The notes under the pieces were generated by a model. The model saw only the letters and a program-made list of their open reading frames with translations, was not told the origin of the DNA and did no database searches. A DNA stretch of 64,000 nt from Minisyncoccota bacterium (GTDB taxonomy: Bacteria > Patescibacteriota > Minisyncoccia > Phycocordibacterales > UBA5272): contig JAGOQU010000002.1 in assembly GCA_018063165.1 (NCBI GenBank), positions 3,048 through 67,047 on the forward strand, given 5' to 3'. A program made the translations under genes and the position numbers. Of the stretch, positions 24,661 to 64,000 are shown piece after piece (the first letter of the stretch is position 1; each line of letters starts with the position of its first letter).

Positions 24661-25998
24661 ATGGACTATCAACAACTTTGGAACAGTGCTTTATCCCAAA
24701 TTGAGATAGAACTCTCAAGAGTTAACTTTAATACTTGGTTCAAGAATACACGTATTATAGATTATAAAGACGGGGAAGTTACTATCGGTGTTCCTAACGA
24801 ATTTGTTAAAGACTGGCTCAATCAAAAATATCATAAATTTATACTTCGTATATTACGAACAATACACGAAAGCGTTCGTTCTGTTGTGTTTACAGTAGTA
24901 AAACCAGAAACATTACAAAAGAAAGCTCAAAACATAACAATAACAGGTCAAACCCTTCCTCTTCAAGATTTATATGTCAATAAAGATGATGGTCTTAATC
25001 CACGTTACACTTTTGAAACATTTATTGTTGGTTCTTTTAACGAAGTAGCATACGCTTGCTCTCAAGCTGTTATCAATAACCTTGGTATTGTCTATAATCC
25101 TCTTTTTGTATATGGAAATACAGGTCTTGGAAAGACACATATGATGCAAGCAATAGGGAATACTGTAAAGAAAAAATATCCAGACAGAAAAGTATTTTAC
25201 ACGTCACTTGAAAAGTTTTACATGGACTATGTAAATGCTACAAATCTTAACAAGATTAATAGTTTTAAAGAAAAATACAGAAAGTATGATGTCTTTATTA
25301 TGGACGATATTCAATTTATTAATGGAAAAGAAAGAACACAAGATGAACTCTTCCATCTCTTTAATTCTCTTTATGAAATGAATAAGCAGATTATCTTCTC
25401 CTCAGATAAACATCCAAACCTCATTGTTGGCCTAGAAGACCGTCTACGTTCACGATTTAACCAAGGAATGATAGTTGATGTAAACATCCCTCAAGTAGAG
25501 TCAAGGCTCGCAATTTTACAATCAAAAGCAAAAGAGTACAGAGAGAAAATCCCTCAAGAAGTTCTTCAATATATAGCAGAAACAATACAAGGAAATATTC
25601 GAGAACTAGAAGGGGTAATGACGTCAGTACTTGGATATATACAAATTAAACAACAAGCAATAACTCTTCTTGATGTTAAAAACCTTCTTAAAAATAGTGT
25701 ACGAGCAAAAAAGAGTATATCTATTCCTGAAATAGTAAAAATGATTGCTGATTATTATCATATTCCTGATGTGTATATTTATAACAAAACAAGACGAAAA
25801 GATGTTGTAAAACCAAGACAAATTGTCATGTATGTACTTCGTGAAGATTTTGATATTTCGTATCCAATGATAGGTGACAGATTAGGTGGACGTGACCACA
25901 CAACAGTAATACATTCATACGAAAAAATAAAAGGTATGTTAAAAGATAACCCACAACTATCACGTGAAGTTGAAGATATACGAGCAATGCTACTTTAA
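24661..25998 (+). CDS. dnaA: Chromosomal replication initiator DnaA
   Basis: AAA+ 'GNTGLGKTHMMQAIGN', Walker B 'VFIMDDIQF', C-terminal DNA-binding helix-turn-helix 'VMYVLREDFDISYPMIGDRLGGRDHTTVIHSYEKI'. Confidence 0.9.
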   Translation: MDYQQLWNSALSQIEIELSRVNFNTWFKNTRIIDYKDGEVTIGVPNEFVKDWLNQKYHKFILRILRTIHESVRSVVFTVVKPETLQKKAQNITITGQTLPLQDLYVNKDDGLNPRYTFETFIVGSFNEVAYACSQAVINNLGIVYNPLFVYGNTGLGKTHMMQAIGNTVKKKYPDRKVFYTSLEKFYMDYVNATNLNKINSFKEKYRKYDVFIMDDIQFINGKERTQDELFHLFNSLYEMNKQIIFSSDKHPNLIVGLEDRLRSRFNQGMIVDVNIPQVESRLAILQSKAKEYREKIPQEVLQYIAETIQGNIRELEGVMTSVLGYIQIKQQAITLLDVKNLLKNSVRAKKSISIPEIVKMIADYYHIPDVYIYNKTRRKDVVKPRQIVMYVLREDFDISYPMIGDRLGGRDHTTVIHSYEKIKGMLKDNPQLSREVEDIRAMLL

Positions 25999-26281: not shown

Positions 26282-27373
26282 ATGAAATTCGAATGCAAAG
26301 GAGATGTATTTATTAAAGCAGTACAACAAGTGTCACGTGCACGTAGTAAAGTTATGTCTTCAAATTATCTTCAAGACATACATTTAGAATTAGATACTCA
26401 TTTATTAACATTACGAGCAACTAATTTAGAATTATTTTGTGAAAAGAGTATTCCTGTAAAAGGTCTTATGAATGGTTCTTGTTTATTACAAGGTGAAACA
26501 TTACTTAGAATTATTTCAACATTTCAATCAAAAGATGTAACTCTTAGTTGTGAAATTATAGATGGAGTTTTTTCTATTACAACAGAGAAAGGGGTTATAG
26601 AAATAAAAACAACTCCATATGAAGATTTTCCTACGTTACCAAAACAAGGAATAACTATAGGAACTCTTTCAAAAGAAAATATAACAATGCTTCTTAGGGA
26701 AGTTTCTTTTTGCGCTGCAACAACTGAAATCAAACCAGAAATATCTTCTGTATATGTATACACAAAAGATGATTATATTTTTTCTGTTTCAACTGATTCA
26801 TATAGGTTAGCAGAAAAGAAAATACCTAACGATAATGAGATAGAGTGTTCTTTACTTATTCCACAAAAACATATAGCAGAAATACTTCAAATAATAAACG
26901 AAGAGACACAAGATCTTGTTTTGTCTGTTAACGAAAGCATACTTTCTATTTCTTCGTCTAATTTAACATTATCCATACATACAATTACAGGGCAGTTCCC
27001 AGATTACACTCAACTTTTTCCAAAAGAATTTACAACAACTGTAGAAATTTCAAAAGAAGAACTTTCAAAAGCTCTTACTCTTACTACGTTTTTTAATGAA
27101 AAATATTCTCAAGTGGAATGTATTTTTACTGATTCAAAATGTACACTTCACAGTAAAAATGAAGCTGTTGGTCAAGTTACTCACACTATTAATGCTACTA
27201 AAAAAGGTGACGATATAGAGATGAAATATAATAATAAATATTTCTTAGATGTTTTTTCTCATATAGAAGGAGATACTCTTACGTGTATGTTTTCTACACC
27301 AAATCGTCCTATGTTTATACGTGGTGTTAAAGATATATCATTTACATATCTTTTAATGCCTTTAAATAGATAA
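26282..27373 (+). CDS. dnaN: DNA polymerase III beta sliding clamp
   Basis: Position immediately after dnaA; ~363 aa, three-domain-length clamp-like ORF. Confidence 0.8.
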   Translation: MKFECKGDVFIKAVQQVSRARSKVMSSNYLQDIHLELDTHLLTLRATNLELFCEKSIPVKGLMNGSCLLQGETLLRIISTFQSKDVTLSCEIIDGVFSITTEKGVIEIKTTPYEDFPTLPKQGITIGTLSKENITMLLREVSFCAATTEIKPEISSVYVYTKDDYIFSVSTDSYRLAEKKIPNDNEIECSLLIPQKHIAEILQIINEETQDLVLSVNESILSISSSNLTLSIHTITGQFPDYTQLFPKEFTTTVEISKEELSKALTLTTFFNEKYSQVECIFTDSKCTLHSKNEAVGQVTHTINATKKGDDIEMKYNNKYFLDVFSHIEGDTLTCMFSTPNRPMFIRGVKDISFTYLLMPLNR

Positions 27374-38642: not shown

Positions 38643-38714
38643 GCTCTCGTAGTTCAATGGATAGAATTCAAGTTTGCGGTACTTGCGATGCAGGTTCGAT
38701 TCCTGCCGAGAGCA
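38643..38714 (+). tRNA. tRNA, manual fold gives anticodon GCG (Arg); identity needs tRNAscan confirmation
   Basis: Acceptor GCTCTCG/CGAGAGC, anticodon stem CAAGT/ACTTG with loop TTGCGGT, T-arm CAGGTTCGATTCCTG. Confidence 0.65.
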
Positions 38715-38758
38715 CAAATACAAAACAACGACACCAAAGTGTCGTTGTTTTGTATTTG
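38715..38758 (+). terminator. Long perfect hairpin immediately 3' of the tRNA
   Basis: caaatacaaaacaacgacac-caaa-gtgtcgttgttttgtatttg (20-bp stem). Confidence 0.6.
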
Positions 38759-38856
38759 TGATCGAGAGAAAGCCAACTACTTGGCTTTCGTGTAAGAATC
38801 GAATAGGGGTCGAGGAGTCTCCTGTTTTATGTATTCATAAAACGAGACGAGGTGAC

Positions 38857-38872
38857 CGATTCCTGCCGAGAG
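38857..38872 (+). repeat. Direct copy of the tRNA 3' end (cgattcctgccgagag), ~160 bp downstream of the original at 38697..38712
   Basis: 16/16 nt identity; the similarity extends into the following 'acaaatacaaa'. Confidence 0.75.
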
Positions 38873-38909
38873 ACAAAATACAAATAACTTACTTTTAACA
38901 GTAGGGGTT

Positions 38910-51040: not shown

Positions 51041-51079
51041 TGCGCAAAATATGTCTTTTGTTTACAAAAGACTATTTTG

Positions 51080-51170
51080 CGGAGAATGTGAGATTCGAAC
51101 TCACGGGCCTAATAAAAGGCCGACGGTTTAGTAAACCGTTGATTTAAGCCACTCATCCAATTCTCCTGTA
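51080..51170 (-). tRNA. Type-II (long variable arm) Ser-like tRNA with atypical anticodon arm; manual fold gives anticodon ACU
   Basis: Minus-strand fold: acceptor GGAGAAT/ATTCTCC, T-arm GTGAGTTCGAATCTCAC, variable arm CGGCCTTTTATTAGGCCCG, anticodon arm ACGGT-TTACTAA-ACCGT that is part of a perfect palindrome ACGGTTTA-C-TAAACCGT. Confidence 0.5.
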
Positions 51171-55717: not shown

Positions 55718-55754
55718 AACAAAATACGTTTTATTTAAATAGTTTTTTGTAGAT

Positions 55755-55772
55755 GTGCCCTCGCGTGGAATC
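55755..55772 (+). repeat. Direct copy of the tRNA-Arg(TCT) 3' end (gtgccctcgcgtggaatc), ~145 bp beyond the gene
   Basis: 18/18 nt identical to 55919..55936. Confidence 0.75.
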
Positions 55773-55869
55773 TGTCACAAATCTGCCTCGCTTTGCTCGA
55801 AGCAGATTCGCGATCCCGTATTCGCTTCCACCGTAAGTGACGAAGGTCACTTACTTTCTGTTGACATTG

Positions 55870-55917: not shown

Positions 55918-55919
55918 TG

Positions 55920-55991
55920 TGCCCTCGCGTGGAATCGAACCACGAATAACGGCTTAGAAGTCCGCAGTTATATCCATTTAACTACAAGGGC
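55920..55991 (-). tRNA. tRNA, manual fold gives anticodon TCT (Arg); weak 27:43/31:39 pairs
   Basis: Minus-strand: GCCCTTG-TA-GTTA...TAAC-T-GCGGA-CTTCTAA-GCCGT-...CGTGGTTCGATTCCACG-CGAGGGC-A. Confidence 0.6.
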
Positions 55992-56127
55992 GTAAAGCAC
56001 AGTATATATACTATCAGAAATTTTAAAAAGAGGCGAGAAGTATAGTAAGTACACCTTGTTGTTTTATCGGAATCGGTCACGTAAACAATTTTTGATTACA
56101 AAAAATAGAAGTCTACCCTTGATTCCA

Positions 56128-56225
56128 AGTCCAAGACATAACTTTACTAAGTTAGAATTGAACTTGCTAGTTCTCCGCATTCGAATCCTCACGTACGACA
56201 CGCAGGTGTCGTACTTATTTCCCAC
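56128..56225. repeat. Structured repeat module homologous to 46951-47045
   Basis: Shared 'caagtccaagacataac'; three consecutive hairpins with compensatory changes relative to the 46.9-kb copy (aacc..ggtt vs aact..agtt; gaatc-tgct-gattc vs gaact-tgct-agttc; N9-gcag-N9'). Confidence 0.6.
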
Positions 56226-56274
56226 TAAAATACAAAAACAGAATCATTTGATTCTGTTTTTGTATTTTAGTGGG
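56221..56274. terminator. 26-bp perfect hairpin overlapping the tRNA-Val 3' end
   Basis: cccactaaaatacaaaaacagaatca-tt-tgattctgtttttgtattttagtggg. Confidence 0.6.
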
Positions 56275-56343
56275 AAATAGAGGATTCGAACCTCTGACCT
56301 TCGCTGTGTAAAAGCGCTGCTCTACCAACTGAGCTAATCTCCC
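56271..56343 (-). tRNA. tRNA-Val (anticodon TAC)
   Basis: Minus-strand: GGGAGATTAGCTCAGTTGGTAGAGC..., loop TTTACAC, T-arm GAGGTTCGAATCCTC. Confidence 0.7.
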
Positions 56344-57747: not shown

Positions 57748-57919
57748 TTTTGTTTGATTTACTAGATGAGCTAATAATATCGGGAATTGGTCATCAAATA
57801 TACATAATACGAAATAGGAGGACTTGATCACAAAGTCTATTTTGATTACAAAAATATAGGACTTTGCGATCCCTACTCAAGTCCATATAAAAGTGATAGA
57901 AGAACTAACAATATCGGGA

Positions 57920-57992
57920 CTTGGTCACCTCGTCTCGTTTCAGGATTATCTGAAACAGTAGACTCCTCGACCCCTATTCAAGTCCTCACGCA
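57920..57992. repeat. Structured repeat module, inverted homolog of 38795-38856
   Basis: Reverse complement reads 'gaataggggtcgaggagtctactg-tttcag..ctgaaa-cgagacgaggtgacc' versus 38801 'gaataggggtcgaggagtctcctg-ttttatg..cataaaa-cgagacgaggtgacc' (the hairpin stem differs, with compensatory changes). Confidence 0.6.
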
Positions 57993-58014
57993 TGACACGC
58001 AGGTGTCATGCTTC

Positions 58015-58074
58015 CTGGGCACCAATGTAAAAAAGCAACATCATTTGATGTTGCTTTTTTACATTGGTGCCCAG
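58015..58074. terminator. 29-bp perfect hairpin incorporating the tRNA-Leu 3' end
   Basis: ctgggcaccaatgtaaaaaagcaacatca-tt-tgatgttgcttttttacattggtgcccag. Confidence 0.6.
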
Positions 58075-58151
58075 GAGAGGACTTGAACCTCCATGCCGTT
58101 GCCAGCGCTACCACCTCAAGGTAGTGCGTCTACCAGTTTCGCCACCTGGGC
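58065..58151 (-). tRNA. tRNA-Leu (anticodon GAG), type II, with genomically encoded CCA
   Basis: Minus-strand: GCCCAGGTGGCGAAACTGGTAGACGCA-CTACC-TTGAGGT-GGTAG-variable arm-GGAGGTTCAAGTCCTCT-CCTGGGC-A-CCA. Confidence 0.7.
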
Positions 58152-58959: not shown

Positions 58960-59032
58960 GGTGCCTATAGTGTAATGGTTAGCACTAGGGTTTGTGGAAC
59001 CCTCAGTTCGGGTTCAAATCCCGATAGGCACA
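58960..59032 (+). tRNA. tRNA-His (anticodon GTG) with extra 5' G
   Basis: G-GTGCCTA...anticodon arm AGGGT-TTGTGGA-ACCCT, T-arm CGGGTTCAAATCCCG, acceptor TAGGCAC-A. Confidence 0.7.
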
Positions 59033-59080
59033 CACGTGAAAAAAGACAGCTTTGGCTGTCTTTTTTCGTGTGTGCCTATC
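59023..59080 (+). terminator. Long hairpin incorporating the tRNA-His 3' end
   Basis: gataggcacacacgtgaaaaaagacagc-tttg-gctgtcttttttcgtgtgtgcctatc. Confidence 0.55.
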
Positions 59081-59398
59081 GAGTAACAAAACCAAAGTTT
59101 TGTTGCGTGGATTTGAAGCGAAAAAGTGGCTACGAAATAACTACAAAGAAAAGCTGAACCCCTGACTTTTCTTTGTAATTATTTTGTCACTTTTTCTGGG
59201 GGTCGAGGAGCAATGTTTTTATTGAGCACAAAATGTGAAAAGAGAAACATGTGCGAGGTGACCAAATCCCGATTGAATTTTACACCAGAAACCTCCTTAT
59301 CAAAAAAAAGGGTTTAGTTCTCACATTTTGGTACCCTTTAGAGAATTACAGAGGAGATTGGAACTGTACAATAATTTTATTCTGAGTATAATAAAATC
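59033..59398 (+). repeat. Cassette-array structured repeat unit U1 (between tRNA-His and the cupin gene)
   Basis: Contains the inverted tRNA-His 3' copy 'gtgtgcctatc...ggatttgaa', the 'ctacgaaa' box, a covarying hairpin, the 'tgggggtcgagg...gaggtgaccaaatcccgat' module and a promoter-like box at 59341-59392. Confidence 0.6.
59341..59392 (+). promoter_or_regulatory. Conserved promoter-like box upstream of the cupin gene
   Basis: 'gagaattacagaggagattggaactgtacaat', shared with 62206-62238; -35-like ttacag, -10-like tacaat; second 'tataat' at 59387. Confidence 0.4.
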
Positions 59399-59785
59399 AT
59401 GAAAGGATATATTATAAATATTGAAGAAGAGACATTAAAAAATACAGATTATAGACGTGTTTTATATACAAGTAAACACAGCCAGCTTGTACTCATGTGT
59501 GTTATGCCGGGTGATGAAATTGGTGAAGAGATCCATCACTTAGATCAATTTATTCGTTTTGAAGAAGGTGAAGGAAAAGTTATTTTTGATGGTGTCGAAT
59601 ATGGTGTTTCTGCTGATATGGCTGTTGTTATTCCACAAGGTATGAAACATAATGTTATAAATACGAGCACTGTACCACTTAAACTTTACAGCATTTACTC
59701 TCCACCTGAGCATAAAGATGGCATAGTTGAAAAAACAAAAGCAGACGAAGTTGAAGAACATTTTGATGGAGTGACTACAGAGTAA
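59399..59785 (+). CDS. Cupin-domain protein (128 aa)
   Basis: 'PGDEIGEEIHHLDQFIRFEEGEGKV...AVVIPQGMKHNVINTS' two-motif cupin pattern. Confidence 0.7.
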   Translation: MKGYIINIEEETLKNTDYRRVLYTSKHSQLVLMCVMPGDEIGEEIHHLDQFIRFEEGEGKVIFDGVEYGVSADMAVVIPQGMKHNVINTSTVPLKLYSIYSPPEHKDGIVEKTKADEVEEHFDGVTTE

Positions 59786-60105
59786 AGTAATTTATATTCT
59801 TATTATCTGAGTTCTAACCTCATCTACGACAGTACACACGTGAAAATAGACGGCTTCGGCCGTCTATTTTCGTGTGTGCCTATCAGTAATAATGTCCAAA
59901 CATTGTTACGTGGGATTTGAACGAAACGTCGGTCTACGAAAATGAGATGTAAAAATTGGGTGCAGTATTTTTAGATTTCATTTTTGTCGACGTTTCCCGG
60001 GGTCGAGACTTTGAGACTTTGTTTGAGTCGCAAGACGAAAAAGAAAGTCCAAAGTGGTGACCAAATATCCCGATAGGCATACTAAAGGTGTATACTTGAT
60101 TTATA
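59786..60105 (+). repeat. Cassette-array structured repeat unit U2
   Basis: Box A 'tgagttctaacctcatctacgacagtacac' (59808-59837), hairpin H1, 'gtgtgcctatcag', H2 'taataatgtccaaacattgtta', 'gggatttgaacgaaacgtcggtctacgaaa', H3, 'cccggggtcgag', H4, 'ggtgaccaaatatcccgataggca'. Confidence 0.65.
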
Positions 60106-60398
60106 TGAAAACTTTAAAAACATTTATAATTGTTTCTATTCTTACACTTGGGATGACCACATCAGTTTTTGCGGCTTGGTGGAACCCTTTTACGTGGTTT
60201 CAAAAGAAAGTTGTACCAACACAACAAGTAAAACAAAATACAGTACCGATAAATTTAACCAAAGAGGTAGCGTCAAGTACTAATATTTTAACTAAAAATT
60301 CCAACGCCCAAGTTAAGCAGGCATTTAATTTAAAAAAATTTGGAATATCTTTTGAGTACCCAAATAGTATCTTAGATATAAATATAAAGCCGAACTAA
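60106..60398 (+). CDS. Small secreted/anchored protein with conserved 'AAWWNPFTWFQKKV' N-terminal motif
   Basis: Start taken at 'MKTLKTFIIVSILTLG' (the ORF track begins at 60054 inside the repeat); paralogous N-terminus to 61141..61962. Confidence 0.45.
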
Positions 60399-60440
60399 CT
60401 TCCACTTCAGGGTGATGAGAGTGGATTATCAGAAAGTGTT

Positions 60441-60857
60441 TTGATTACGGAGAATACTATCTCTAGCCCGAGCGAAGGAAATATTAAATATGGAAATAAT
60501 TTTACTTTAGGGGTAAATATTACCATGAGTGGAGATATTGAGTTTGCTAAAAAATCTACCGAAATGAAAAGAATAGTCATTGATAACCCTAATCTAGAGG
60601 TATATTTAACGTTAGAAAATCCTGAAATAAATAACAGAGTTATCTACCACATTTATGACACTAAGAGAAACTGGCATATGTACATTACCTCTAGTTACAG
60701 TATTGATAATACTAAATTGTCGTCAGATCAAATTTCCTATACAAGAAATGTTTATAAAGAATCCATTAAATCAATATTACCAATTATAAATAGTATTAAA
60801 AATACCAATAATGTTGTATATCCTATTGGTACCAAGCTTAAAGCCGGAGGGGTTTAG
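60441..60857 (+). CDS. Hypothetical protein (138 aa)
   Basis: ORF only. Confidence 0.4.
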   Translation: MITENTISSPSEGNIKYGNNFTLGVNITMSGDIEFAKKSTEMKRIVIDNPNLEVYLTLENPEINNRVIYHIYDTKRNWHMYITSSYSIDNTKLSSDQISYTRNVYKESIKSILPIINSIKNTNNVVYPIGTKLKAGGV

Positions 60858-61140
60858 AATTTAAACTACAACAATAGATGTGAGTATTGTGCGGGTTGTT
60901 TTTCATTTGGTATGCCTATCAGTAATAATGTCCAAACATTGTTACGTGGGATTTGAACGAAACGTCGGTCTACGAAATTATTATTCAAAAATTGAGTGCA
61001 GTATTTTTGAATAATATTTTTGTCACTTTTTCTGGAGGGCGAGGAGCAATGTTTTTATTGAGCACTAAGTACGAAAAGAAAAACATATGCGAGGTGACCA
61101 AATCATAAATGAGTTATTTAAAATGGTATACTGTATCAAT
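60858..61140 (+). repeat. Cassette-array structured repeat unit U3 (5'-truncated: box A and the left arm of H1 missing)
   Basis: 'ttttcatttggtatgcctatcagtaataatgtccaaacattgttacgtgggatttgaacgaaacgtcggtctacgaaa', then covarying hairpin aattattattcaaaaa...tttttgaataatattt, 'ggagggcgaggagcaatg...gaggtgaccaaat'. Confidence 0.6.
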
Positions 61141-61962
61141 ATGAAAATAATAAAAACATTCACCATTATTTCTGTTCTCACCATCGGTATTACTCAATCA
61201 GCTTTTGCTTTATGGTGGAACCCATTTACGTGGTTTCAGAAGAAGGTGATATCAGTACAGCAAGTGCAACAAAATAACACAAATACTCATGTTCAGAATG
61301 TTTCGAGTACATTAAATGAATCTCTCTCTACAGATAATACAAGACCAGATAATGAAGTTAGTTTTAAAATTATCAAATGTAATCCAAAAACATATGATGA
61401 AAATTATTTCATTAAAGAAAAACCTTGCGTATCTGATGTTAATTCTATTGATAAAGAAAGAGAATTTAAAGCTTCAAAAATAATCAAAGAAATTGAACCA
61501 GAAGGATCGCCTTGGAGGGAGGGGGTGACGCTTTATGTTTCTGATGAGAGATATCAGTTGCTTAACGTCAACTTTGGTCCAAAAATTGGATATATAGTCG
61601 TTGATACTGTTAATAATAAAGTTTCAGATCGTTTAGTGTTTAGGGGCTCTGATTTTGTTCATAAGGATAATAAAAGAATTATTTTTACTTCAGGTCTTCG
61701 TTCTAATCCCTCAGTTTCATTAATGCAATATATATATGGAACAGAAAAACTTGTTACAATAAAGGATTCAGAAATAGTGGAACCAAAAACATATCTCGAT
61801 GGACAATCTTTAGAAACTGATAATGGAATAAAAGTTCTGGCATCATCTACTGATTCTATAACACTTGGTATCTATGATAAAAATGAAGCTATTAAAAAAC
61901 CAGAAATATATTGGGTGTCATATAAGCAAATAGGGACAAAAGTTATTGATTTGAATAAATAA
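61141..61962 (+). CDS. Secreted protein (274 aa), paralog of 60106..60398 at its N-terminus
   Basis: Start at 'MKIIKTFTIISVLTIGITQSAFALWWNPFTWFQKKV'. Confidence 0.5.
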   Translation: MKIIKTFTIISVLTIGITQSAFALWWNPFTWFQKKVISVQQVQQNNTNTHVQNVSSTLNESLSTDNTRPDNEVSFKIIKCNPKTYDENYFIKEKPCVSDVNSIDKEREFKASKIIKEIEPEGSPWREGVTLYVSDERYQLLNVNFGPKIGYIVVDTVNNKVSDRLVFRGSDFVHKDNKRIIFTSGLRSNPSVSLMQYIYGTEKLVTIKDSEIVEPKTYLDGQSLETDNGIKVLASSTDSITLGIYDKNEAIKKPEIYWVSYKQIGTKVIDLNK

Positions 61963-62244
61963 TTTGAGTTCTAATCCCGTCTACGACAGTACACAATTTT
62001 AACAAAAGACATAAACTAACAGTTTGTGTCTTTTGTTTTAAAAATTGTAGTGCCTATCGGGATTTGAACCGCGGACCGCAAGTTACGATCAGCAACTGAA
62101 GGTTTCGAGCCTAGCAAGGCGAGAGGCAAATCCCATTAAATGGTTTGAATAAAATCTCTTTATTAAACGGGGGGATTTTTAATCACAACTTTTACATACC
62201 TAATCGAGAATTACAAACGAGGTTGGAACTGGTATAATGTACTA
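61963..62244 (+). repeat. Cassette-array structured repeat unit U4
   Basis: Box A 'tgagttctaatcccgtctacgacagtacac', hairpin, then uninterrupted inverted tRNA-His 3' copy 'gtgcctatcgggatttgaacc' (21/21), and the promoter-like box 62206-62238. Confidence 0.6.
62206..62238 (+). promoter_or_regulatory. Promoter-like box upstream of the HIT gene
   Basis: -35 'ttacaa' (62211-62216), 16-nt spacer, extended -10 'tggtataat' (62230-62238). Confidence 0.45.
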
Positions 62245-62742
62245 ATGTCAAATTATGAAGCTACAACAAAAGAAGGTAAGTGTGTTTTTTGTGGAATAGT
62301 TACTGGAACGATTCCGGTTGCAGGTAAGTTTTGGGAGAATGATGAGTTTATGGCATTTTTAGCTATAGATCCAAATACAGAGGGTTTTACATGTGTAATA
62401 CCAAAAGAACATTATGGGAGTGATGTATTAAAAATGCCTGACGAGGTATTATCGAGATTTGTAATCGCTTCAAAAGAAGTTGTTCAATTACTAGAAAAAT
62501 ATTTTACAGATGTAGGTCGTGTTGGCCTTATGATGGAGGGGACAGGAATTGATCATGCTCATATCAAGTTAGCCCCATTTCATGGTACAGAAAATTTAAA
62601 GGATGGAGGTTGGCAACAATATCTAAGTGGTAAAGAATTTTGGTTTGATAAGTATGAAGGATGGATTTGTTCTGGCGGTGGGCCAAAAGCTGATCCAGAG
62701 AAATTAAAAATTCTTGCTGAGGGAATTAGAAAAGTTAGTTAG
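62245..62742 (+). CDS. HIT (histidine triad) family hydrolase
   Basis: 'CVFCGIV' zinc-like N-terminus and HIT motif 'GIDHAHIKL'. Confidence 0.7.
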   Translation: MSNYEATTKEGKCVFCGIVTGTIPVAGKFWENDEFMAFLAIDPNTEGFTCVIPKEHYGSDVLKMPDEVLSRFVIASKEVVQLLEKYFTDVGRVGLMMEGTGIDHAHIKLAPFHGTENLKDGGWQQYLSGKEFWFDKYEGWICSGGGPKADPEKLKILAEGIRKVS

Positions 62743-63047
62743 TTGAGTTCTAATCCCGTCTACGACAGTACACCAAATGTAAAATCGCCGTTTAGGCGAT
62801 TTTTCATTTGGTGTACCTATCAGTAATAATGTCTAAACATTGTTACGTGGGATTTGAACGAAACGTCGGTCTACGAAAATGAGATGTAAAAATTGGGTGC
62901 AGTATTTTTAGATTTCATTTTTGTCGACGTTTCCCGGGGTCGAGGTTAAGAGGTTTTGTTTGAATCCAGAGGACGAAAAAGAAAACCCTTAACGGTGACC
63001 AAATCCTGACGAACTTTTTTAAATAACAGATGGTATACTATTTAAAT
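62743..63047 (+). repeat. Cassette-array structured repeat unit U5
   Basis: Box A; H1 (different sequence from U2 but same flanks); ~110 bp identical to U2 (H2 through H3 to 'cccggggtcgag'); H4 with a compensatory stem (gttaagagg...cccttaac vs U2 actttg...caaagt); 'ggtgaccaaatcc'. Confidence 0.65.
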
Positions 63048-63953
63048 ATGAAAAAAATAATTTTATCAGTTTCTATACTTCTTTCTTGCTGTTTTAATCT
63101 TTATGCTGAAAATGCATCTACTACAGACAAGGAAAAAGTGATGGAAAAAATGGAAATATTTGATAAAGCAATCAATCAAGGGGATGTATCGAAAGTACAG
63201 TCACTTATTTCTTCTAGTAACACTAATTTACAAATAGCAGTTAAAGATAGAATTAGATATCCAATCAAGTTCAATTTTTACGTTAGTTCTGCTGATGAAG
63301 ATGTTCAAGCAATTAGTCCAAACGTATTTAAATATGTAGGAGCTTTCGATGCAAAAACAGACGAGATAGAAATAAAAAATTTCCCTGTTTATTTTACTTT
63401 TGAAAAAACAACAAATGGAGAATTTTTTATTGTTGATACTGACTTTGTTGATAAATTAAATTCAGGTCCAGGAGATGTTGTTAACGAAGTATTTTCACAA
63501 GCAAATATTCAAGATGTTGATAATTTTTTTAAAAATTCAAAACATTTTTTAGTTATTTTTATACTACTTATATTTTTTTGGCTCTTCATGTTTAATGATT
63601 GTCTAAAAAGAGATTTTGAAAATAAATGGCTATGGGTATTATCTTTTATAATAGGAAGTATAGCAACTGCATTTTTGTATTACTTCACAATTAAGAAAAA
63701 GGATATTGATCAAAATAGTTCAAGTAAACAAGATTTAAAAAATATTTCAAGTGAAGAAGGCTTAACAGTTAAGGAAAAAACAGTTTTAATATTTTTAAGT
63801 TTATTTATTCTTGGTTTACCTGGTGCTATTATGTACTATGTTTGGCGTAAAAAGTATCCAACAAAAGCAGAACAAGCAAAGCATATTTCGAGAGTAACGC
63901 TTTTCATTCTGTTTGTTATTTCTATTTTTATTCTAATAAAAATAAGCCCTTAG
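63048..63953 (+). CDS. Membrane protein with signal peptide and C-terminal TM helices (302 aa)
   Basis: Start at 'MKKIILSVSILLSCCFNLYA'; C-terminal hydrophobic helices. Confidence 0.45.
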   Translation: MKKIILSVSILLSCCFNLYAENASTTDKEKVMEKMEIFDKAINQGDVSKVQSLISSSNTNLQIAVKDRIRYPIKFNFYVSSADEDVQAISPNVFKYVGAFDAKTDEIEIKNFPVYFTFEKTTNGEFFIVDTDFVDKLNSGPGDVVNEVFSQANIQDVDNFFKNSKHFLVIFILLIFFWLFMFNDCLKRDFENKWLWVLSFIIGSIATAFLYYFTIKKKDIDQNSSSKQDLKNISSEEGLTVKEKTVLIFLSLFILGLPGAIMYYVWRKKYPTKAEQAKHISRVTLFILFVISIFILIKISP

Positions 63954-64000
63954 AGGAATTTAAGAAGATGAAGCTATCCCAATTCTAACCCCGTCCAAGA
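63954..64000 (+). repeat. Start of a further repeat unit (U6, truncated by the window end)
   Basis: 'ccaattctaaccccgtccaaga' resembles box A (ttctaa[ct]ccc[ga]tc). Confidence 0.4.

Follow-up and report, generated by a model that had tools for sequence, protein, structure and literature searches.

The window analyzed here is a 64,000-nt stretch of contig JAGOQU010000002.1 from a Minisyncoccota bacterium; all coordinates without a locus number are positions in it, and the related loci compared with it carry L-numbers (L019, L053 and so on). The region 59786-63047 belongs to an array that begins at a tRNA-His gene and holds five short genes on the same strand, spaced by the structured repeat units U1-U5 (Table 1). 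A preliminary description of this region had drawn attention to hairpins whose stems change in sequence while staying complementary, and had proposed folded attC-like recombination substrates or a cis-regulatory or small RNA. Two features were overlooked in it. Every unit is built on the 3' end of its tRNA neighbour: positions 54-76 are present in inverted form and positions 57-76 as a direct copy of 20 nt, and in U1-U5 the sequence that recurs in both orientations is that of tRNA-His positions 54-76. Secondly, the family accompanies tRNA genes across a superphylum.

A unit is 115-215 nt long. Read 5' to 3' on the plus strand, it opens with a canonical bidirectional intrinsic terminator (hairpin H1), followed in the array by GTGCCTATC, the reverse complement of the tRNA-His acceptor 3' strand, by hairpin P2, which often splits the inverted tRNA copy, and by GTGGGATTTGAA, the reverse complement of the T-stem 3' strand and the T-loop. 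The antisense segment measures 17-23 nt. An optional part comes next, consisting of stem P4 around CTACGAAA, hairpin P5 directly after CTACGAAA, and TTTGTC; P8 is another optional hairpin module. The core is made up of GGGGTCGAG, hairpin P7 (the stem between GTCGAG and GGTGACC) and GGTGACC, with P6 formed by GGTC:GACC across a purine-rich internal loop. In the array the unit closes with AAATCCC(GATAGGCA), the direct copy of the tRNA-His 3' end. The invariant core sequence GGGGTCG-P7-TGACC abuts this direct repeat of tRNA positions 57-76, and each copy sits between the intact tRNA and the repeat of about 20 bp. An extra small hairpin is sometimes found between TGACC and the tRNA repeat (GAAA-GCG-TACT-CGC-G in one form, ATG-TACT-CAT in another), of which the stem covaries and the loop UACU is kept; it occurs at L007 435-455, in L122 after 6834 on the minus strand and in L123, mainly behind tRNA-Arg genes.

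The covariation reported for U1, U2, U3 and U5 holds up in the sequence. P5 is formed by three different self-complementary stems (U2/U5, 59942-59991; U3, 60978-61027; U1, 59138-59191), its 12-nt loop TTGRGTGCAGTA is common to U2, U3 and U5, and the U1 loop is CTGAACCCCTGA; P7 likewise differs in sequence among U1, U2 and U5 with pairing retained. Larger alignments give a significant result as well. For the P4/P5 module the window alone provides three independent versions; four metagenomic relatives were added, and six distinct versions were scored. Paired cells amount to 94.9% against 79.8% in shuffles (0/500) and 50-66% in slid controls, with changes on both sides in 8 of the 17 pairs of P5 and 4 of the 9 pairs of P4. 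A metagenome scan for the P5 loop located this module in units behind tRNA-Arg(GCG) and Ser-type tRNAs. In the alignment of 18 simple units the paired share of cells is 84%, compared with 71% for shuffles (0/500) and 35-45% for slid controls, and the covariation score is 0.389 against 0.159 (0/500). By helix, pairing in this set reaches 97.5% in P2 (double changes at 6 of 9 pairs), 95% in P7 (8 of 13) and 82% in the T-like stem P3 (6 of 8), but only 57% in the acceptor-like stem P1. Many of the double changes are transversions, that is, replacement of whole stems. Two units of L053 (489-622 and 1361-1494), 870 bp apart, have the same terminators, arms, P2 and core, and the distal P7 differs at no fewer than 8 positions, all of them compensated, a hairpin swap like that between U2 and U5. 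The structure is under selection, with strong covariation in four helices. The earlier statement that structure rather than sequence is selected stands in its first half only, since sequence is kept too: P6 (GGGGTCG/TGACC) is invariant and does not covary even in weak matches, and the loops CUGY (P2), UUGRGUGCAGUA (P5) and UACU (the further optional hairpin after TGACC) are conserved.

Pairing between the two tRNA copies, inverted and direct, folds a single strand of the unit into a branched rod. The partner of the inverted copy on the tRNA-sense strand is either the repeat or the genuine tRNA end, and the folded rod presents a double-stranded replica of the T-arm and acceptor end of the tRNA gene beside the core. 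Folded as RNA, U2 reaches -84.1 kcal/mol (z = -9.7, 0/200 shuffles; z = -9.0 with DNA parameters), and its opposite strand only -60.7 kcal/mol (z = -5.6), a difference of 23 kcal/mol in favour of the sense strand. Pairs in P2 comprise 155 Watson-Crick, 3 GT and 0 AC, and those in 48 distinct P7 stems comprise 629 Watson-Crick, 17 GU and 1 CA. The small number of wobble pairs together with the energy asymmetry points to the tRNA-sense strand as the folding strand.

The mosaic pattern noted previously is real. The run shared by U2 and U5, estimated at about 110 bp, is exactly 110 bp (59898-60007 and 62835-62944), and the hairpins on either side of it, terminator and P7, are wholly different in the two units. 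U3 is itself mosaic, resembling U2 in its 5' half and U1 in its 3' half, with P4 now unpaired and a mutated core (GGAGGGCGAG). The complete difference of H1 between U2 and U5 was described correctly, but these hairpins are ordinary bidirectional terminators (A-run, stem, T-run). By the combination of a GC-containing stem and a T-run, only the first hairpin of a unit (Term1, 2, 4 and 5) qualifies as a terminator, and P2, P4/P5 and P6/P7 do not on the sense strand. Bidirectional terminators precede every unit, and no promoter is predicted in front of the units above chance.

Besides the array, simpler units are found behind four other tRNA genes, each with arms derived from its own tRNA and not from tRNA-His, so that 5 of the 7 tRNA genes in the window carry one. 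An exact core-pattern scan of one genome per species returned 118 loci, about half of which are high-GC chance matches in coding-like sequence. The approximately 55 low-GC loci belong to Saccharibacteria, Gracilibacteria, Dojkabacteria (six copies in a single complete genome), Paceibacterota, Nomurabacteria, Kaiserbacteria and other Patescibacteria, and two core loci (L049 and L074) lie in betaproteobacterial metagenome-assembled genomes. Among low-GC loci having any upstream tRNA on the same strand, the core lies 49-322 nt downstream of it in 36 of 38, covering 15 amino-acid specificities, and the sequence after TGACC repeats the upstream tRNA from G57. A covariance model of the core, R1, finds 81 copies in the window and 51 loci, and all copies inspected are linked to a tRNA or lie in tRNA-anchored arrays. 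Units follow 4/4 tRNAs in L085 and 3/4 in L082; of tRNAs not used for ascertainment, 10/37 have one under a strict criterion (at least 27%, a lower bound). The family was not found in the literature searched, including with the core sequence as a text string. The Rfam comparison suggested earlier yields no family: in Rfam 15, searched with the region at the gathering threshold and at E <= 5 and with 12 related loci at gathering, only tRNAs pass, and the best sub-threshold hits are chance hairpin matches.

It is very improbable that the units are ordinary regulatory hairpins (terminators or insulators) or repeats like the repetitive extragenic palindromic (REP) sequences, palindromes kept by hairpin-templated repair and linked to tRNAs incidentally. 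H1 does consist of canonical terminators, and P2 resembles a terminator by score at two units when read on the opposite strand. The hairpins other than H1 are not plain terminators and stand between conserved flanks. Against this explanation are a core that is invariant and not palindromic, conservation of the loops, an exact tRNA repeat of 20 nt and the strict orientation behind tRNA genes in the ~55 loci. No core copy was seen at a non-tRNA site among the inspected R1 matches (81 copies).

In the main rival explanation, possible but rather doubtful, the unit is a structured non-coding RNA that accompanies tRNA genes, a tRNA-like RNA of 100-200 nt made by read-through or by transcription of its own. 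Its acceptor/T minihelix would be as in the neighbouring tRNA, with the GGGGUCG...UGACC domain in place of the T-loop and P2 in place of the D and anticodon arms, and the 17-23-nt antisense segment could act on the cognate tRNA as a guide, decoy or processing partner. The modular build with covarying stems, the three invariant loops, the conserved purine-rich internal loop and the deep conservation over phyla of the Candidate Phyla Radiation (CPR) are consistent with such an RNA, as are the strict co-orientation with the tRNA at a fixed position behind it and the high occupancy in the window and L085. Strand asymmetry agrees too, in the stability of the sense strand, the invariant G-U in P6 and the ratio of GU to CA pairs in P7. 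On the other hand, G-U pairs are scarce (2-3%), a strong bidirectional terminator always stands in front and no promoter is predicted, and no Rfam family matches.

Signs of insertion and turnover are abundant. Measured from G57 of the real tRNA, the exact repeat that follows TGACC has 20 nt in 7 loci and 18, 19, 21, 22 or 24 nt in 7 more. It stops abruptly, spanning tRNA positions 57-76, and takes in 1-3 locus-specific trailer bases at positions 74-76, as CCA is not encoded. That the repeat is equally long at more than 8 different tRNA species suggests that the mechanism fixes the extent of the duplication. An empty site is present in L019, a locus with synteny to 55.2-59.4 kb of the window: the tRNA-His gene there is 100% identical but lacks 59034-59285 (Term1 and U1), and its native trailer matches the sequence beyond the decayed U1 repeat of the window. 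Similarly, tRNA-Ser(UGA) is followed by a unit in L122 and by none in the window. Units occur in tandem behind several tRNAs (tRNA-Leu of the window, L019, L085, L043 and L099), and the distal copy behind the window tRNA-Leu is the decayed one. Unit-bounded arrays carry unrelated accessory genes, namely cupin and HIT in the window, DUF1905, GNAT and DUF1761 in L019, and HAD in L053; U4 is 78% identical to a junction in L019. Type turnover with presence and absence at orthologous tRNAs, tandem copies in decay, the frequently decayed repeat and His-specific arms on units that flank unrelated cassettes all argue against a companion RNA. Regarding unit types, the tRNA-Leu(GAG) segment with its units (57817-58151) is inverted relative to the syntenic L019 2943-3300, and the units are type 1 and a remnant in the window but a minimal core and type 2 in L019.

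Islands that integrate at tRNA genes, tycheposons among them, typically show partial tRNA repeats at the insert edges and accretion in tandem, and cassette arrays and pseudo-tRNA 3' ends (the 'A' motifs described below) are both present here. The units might then be leftover att sites of ordinary integrase-borne islands, that is, functionless fused attL/attR arms of degraded elements. We regard this origin as improbable, in that scars would decay whereas the stems here are kept by compensatory change across phyla. The insert is just 115-215 bp with an invariant core, and integrase att sites do not feature an inverted copy. No integrase remnant was seen either: there is no Phage_integrase match in the window open reading frames (ORFs) tested or in L019, L049, L074, L082, L085 and L120, although a trans-acting enzyme may be encoded elsewhere.

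The reading that we favour, with a probability of roughly 0.45, takes the units as copies of a small insertion or recombination module, non-autonomous and dependent on structure, that has the T-loop and 3' end of tRNA genes as its target. The folded single strand would be the form recognized by a recombinase or integrase encoded elsewhere, and by analogy with the integron attC or the CTX-phi attP hairpin the folding strand would most likely act as DNA. This enzyme would join the folded strand to the T-loop region of the tRNA gene with a fixed 20-bp offset, by which the tRNA would remain intact and its old 3' end would be displaced downstream. Repeated use of tRNA-His, with promoter-gene-terminator cargo presumably captured through the units, would lead to the five-cassette array, and the mosaics and swapped hairpins may be due to recombination between copies. 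This insertion module is favoured by the linkage to tRNAs, the fixed repeat of ~20 nt, filled and empty sites, tandem decayed copies, cassette arrays and mosaics, and further by the terminator before each unit without a predicted promoter and by almost purely Watson-Crick stems that are replaced as a whole.

Several observations weigh on the other side. No recombinase, integrase, Cas1 or HUH gene was seen beside any unit in a Pfam search of ~40 ORFs from the window and seven loci; the loci covered in the search for an enzyme were the window, L019, L049, L053, L074, L082, L085, L120 and L126-L133, with L120 and L126-L133 judged by precomputed Pfam labels. The inverted copy is specific to each tRNA, and a simple transposon could not carry it to 15 kinds of tRNA. 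Many units with a perfect direct repeat lack the acceptor part of the inverted copy or have it in imperfect form, and there is no general trend for the inverted acceptor copy to be preserved better than the direct repeat. The presence of several hairpins whose loops are invariant, the purine-rich internal loop and the diverged core of U4, which pairs through G-U, look more like RNA. The core is identical in CPR and Betaproteobacteria, which fits recent transfer but equally a conserved functional molecule. Excised or circular forms were not seen, and viral scans and blastn against phages and plasmids gave negative or chance results, with no copy in these collections.

We consider it unlikely, though worth stating, that the unit encodes or acts as a programmable guide, in which the invariant scaffold and the accessory hairpins together with the antisense and sense segments of tRNA 54-76 would steer a trans-acting CPR enzyme. 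Its target would be the cognate tRNA gene, for insertion with the 20-bp offset, or the tRNA itself, for modification or cleavage. If true, this would be a new RNA- or single-stranded DNA-guided system with one guide per tRNA, possibly behind cassette capture too.

Table 1. Features of the tRNA-His array and units behind other tRNA genes of the window
Feature	Position	Strand	Remarks
tRNA-His(GUG)	58961-59033	+	Array anchor; ARAGORN; Rfam tRNA 66.4 bits
Term1	59032-59071	+	Bidirectional intrinsic terminator: A-run, GACAGC/GCTGTC stem, T6; 90% identical to Term2
Unit U1	59072-59285	+	Core covariance model 71.6 bits; 59072-59117 inverted tRNA-His 3'-end copy, interrupted by P2; 59118-59196 P4/P5 module; 59198-59263 core GGGGGTCGAG-P7-CGAGGTGACC; 59264-59285 direct repeat in decay, AAATCCCGAT...
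Cassette 1	59323-59785	+	Promoter module and cupin gene (59399-59785); Pfam Cupin_2 3.5e-15
'A' motif and Term2, end of cassette 1	59809-59875	+	Pseudo tRNA 3' end GAGTTCTAAC...ACAGTACAC 59809-59837; Term2 59836-59875
Unit U2	59876-60082	+	Core covariance model 45.9 bits; inverted copy with P2; P4/P5 59922-59996; core 59999-60062; direct repeat AAATATCCCGATAGGCATAC 60063-60082
Cassette 2	60108-60857	+	Secreted-protein gene broken by a stop codon (decaying)
Unit U3	60912-61104	+	Core covariance model 57.6 bits
Cassette 3	61141-61962	+	Unknown-function gene with signal peptide
'A' motif, terminator and unit U4	61966-62134	+	'A' motif 61966-61994; terminator 61995-62046; U4 62050-62134, contiguous inverted copy GTGCCTATCGGGATTTGAA, diverged core GGTTTCGAG-hairpin-CGAGAGGC, then AAATCCC
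Cassette 4	62245-62742	+	HIT-family gene; Pfam HIT 9.8e-7
'A' motif, terminator and unit U5	62745-63011	+	'A' motif 62745-62773; terminator 62774-62810; U5 62813-63011; 50.5 bits
Cassette 5 (last)	63048-63953	+	Unknown-function gene; then 'A' motif, terminator and ddl, seen in L120
Simple unit behind tRNA-Arg(GCG) (38643-38715)	38759-38873	+	P2, GAATCGAA, TAGGGGTCGAGGAG-P7-CGAGGTGACC, repeat GATTCCTGCCGAGAG; 69 bits
Minimal unit behind tRNA-Arg(UCU) (55919-55991, -)	55753-55869	-	TACGGGATCG-stem-TGACA, then perfect 20-nt repeat GATTCCACGCGAGGGCACAT
Diverged unit behind tRNA-Val(UAC) (56270-56343, -)	56069-56224	-	Ends in ...GTTTACGTGACC, followed by GATTCC; 12 bits
Second, degenerate tandem copy behind tRNA-Leu(GAG)	57817-57884	-	17 bits
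Unit behind tRNA-Leu(GAG) (58065-58151, -)	57917-58023	-	66 bits

The cassettes themselves show further regularities. Promoter modules recur before cassette genes (59323-59366 and 62188-62231; 61123-61153, 62229-62259 and 63030-63060), and an extended -10 box (TGGTATACT or TGGTATAAT) lies just 7-10 nt ahead of the ATG, a distance suggesting that cassette mRNAs are leaderless or nearly so. In cassette 2 the ORFs on either side of the stop codon are 60054-60398 and 60441-60857, and its opening 158 nt match the start of cassette 3 at 75% identity, with the signal peptide common to both (60054-60857 and 61087-61276). This part of the array is decaying, given the split gene and the neighbouring U3, which is degenerate along with its 'A' motif and terminator. 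The protein of the cupin cassette is 72-85% identical across many CPR classes, in a different neighbourhood each time (L126 1319-1834, L129, L130 and L132). The window has a match in NCBI assembly GCA_020047435.1, and a protein identical to that of the cupin cassette bears the label Candidatus Pacebacteria. The cupin gene lies 55 nt behind tRNA-Ile(UAU) in L126 and L127, with the same promoter and no unit, and in L130 an IS200-like Y1_Tnp gene is located 3 kb from the cupin homologue, again with no unit nearby.

The 'A' motif, (G/T)GAGTTCTAATCCCGTCTACGACAGTACAC, resembles a degenerate tRNA 3' end beginning in the T-loop. Besides the sites in Table 1 it is found at 63970-64000 and in L120 at 6844, 7924 and 8583, and six neighbouring genes have it after the stop codon and ahead of the terminator, among them ddl and the next gene, which are not followed by a unit. 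A Ser-like equivalent occurs in arrays behind tRNA-Ser (L053 and L124). The motif may be what is left of a partial-tRNA att site, or else an element of the 3' untranslated region; a role as crossover site is ruled out by its presence after ddl and the following gene without any unit.

Elsewhere in the window, the anticodon of a tRNA-Ser gene (51079-51166) is predicted to be ACT, with A at position 34, which is unusual for bacteria and recurs in a related metagenomic contig (L124 1889-1976); apparent unit remnants (TGCG..., ...CCTCCGCAAC) lie downstream of the window gene. DnaN is encoded at 26282-27373 (Pfam), and a 445-aa ORF directly upstream (24661-25998) is a candidate dnaA, so the window may span a replication origin. 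Units lie on both strands to the right of the DnaN region, and thus have no obvious tie to replication direction.

A large part of bacterial diversity belongs to the CPR bacteria (Patescibacteria), whose genomes are tiny, and to our knowledge little has been described on how they gain genes. The abundance of the unit (behind most tRNA genes of the window, all of L085 and at least 27% of unselected tRNAs) would make it one of the commonest CPR repeats. If it is a tRNA-anchored platform for gene capture without a linked integrase, it would be a counterpart of the integron with a different site logic, based on a folded copy of the 3' end of the tRNA and on a duplication of 20 bp that leaves the tRNA intact. 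If it is an RNA instead, it would represent a new class of tRNA-specific companion RNAs with one member per tRNA. Either way, R1 is a searchable marker for hot spots of gene gain in CPR genomes, and the unit is a defined substrate for finding the missing enzyme.

Some candidates can be set aside by comparison with known motifs. Small ribozymes, the kink-turn and box C/D are rejected: the 'UGAG-stem-CGAA' arrangement represents tandem G-A stem extensions, there is no CUGA hammerhead core and no model matches. Group II (IIC) introns insert after terminators, but the unit is far too small for such an intron and has no domain V. Nor is the unit a degenerate tandem tRNA duplicate, as its 5' arm corresponds to T-loop and trailer in reverse complement and does not copy the tRNA 5' strands.

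Integron attC sites carry R''/R' boxes (RYYYAAC ... GTTRRRY) at the hairpin base, measure 57-141 nt and stand in arrays next to intI and attI. Like them, the units are strand-specific, imperfect folded hairpins with covarying stems and a kept structure, composed of a paired box, an unpaired internal spacer, a second stem with bulges and a variable tip, and they bound gene cassettes in one orientation. They are nevertheless not attC sites. RYYYAAC/GTTRRRY, and with it the R and L boxes, is absent; the hairpin bases are tRNA-derived sequence (the paired box being the copy of the tRNA 3' end) and GGGGTCG/TGACC, and the junction of GGTGACC with GANTCC and the T-loop GTTCGAA misfit GTTRRRY. The array from tRNA-His to ddl has no recombinase and no IntI, the units reach 115-215 nt with several conserved loops, and the cassettes bring their own promoters and terminators. 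In integrative mobile elements exploiting Xer (IMEX) of the CTX-phi type, a folded attP hairpin reconstitutes a dif-like site for Xer-dependent integration at dif. An integrated CTX-phi has, as the units do, a direct repeat at both ends and an inverted copy parted from the distal repeat by a structured spacer, but the hairpin of the units reconstitutes tRNA positions 54-76 rather than a dif-like site, and the units lie at tRNA genes.

With casposons and with spacer integration in CRISPR (clustered regularly interspaced short palindromic repeats) the units share a presumed site-specific insertion, placed right at the 3' end of tRNA genes and accompanied by a duplication of fixed length, and in Cas1-type integration, too, repeated insertion at the proximal repeat drives older copies outward. 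The target duplication of casposons is 14-15 bp (PMC6977970), whereas the repeat of the units is ~20 bp and starts in the T-loop at position 57. Further differences are the lack of terminal inverted repeats at the insert ends, the absence of Cas1/PolB among the scanned neighbours, and a tiny insert that bears an inverted copy of the target. In tRNA-integrating islands and tycheposons, a full tRNA on one side and a partial repeat on the other enclose cargo, with tandem cargo arrays and cargo-only satellites. The units show a comparable tRNA identity block and tandem cargo arrays behind one tRNA, but differ from tycheposons in the invariant structured core, the inverted tRNA copy and the occurrence behind many tRNAs of one small genome. 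With REP sequences, the hairpins formed by REP doublets (REPINs) and the hairpin miniature inverted-repeat transposable elements mobilized by HUH enzymes, the units share short length, abundance, strand specificity, compensatory change, a position beside terminators and the absence of any gene or coding sequence; unlike them, they have a strict tRNA target and a 20-bp duplication, are not dispersed, and have no flanking REP-associated tyrosine transposase (RAYT), the sole Y1_Tnp found (L130) having no unit nearby.

Among RNAs, the acceptor/T-stem minihelix recalls tRNA-like molecules (the tRNA-like domain of transfer-messenger RNA, YrlA and mascRNA). The conserved scaffold abutting a target-derived segment of 17-20 nt, with sense and antisense in one molecule, recalls guide RNAs such as omega-RNA, bridge RNA and tigRNA. 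In contrast to these, the units match no Rfam family, have the T-loop replaced and contain two target segments that pair with each other, and no TnpB, IscB, IS110 or Tas gene is adjacent. The tigRNAs are 36 nt and lie in arrays (PMC12045711). TIGR (tandem interspaced guide RNA)-Tas, bridge RNA and omega-RNA are rejected, since size, arrangement and gene neighbourhood do not fit. Collectively, the family has single features in common with each of these systems and fails the defining tests of attC, Xer-type IMEX, casposons, REPINs and every Rfam family, and it is therefore filed apart among insertion elements, as what look like structure-dependent, site-specific insertion elements of tRNA genes, or possibly a new RNA.

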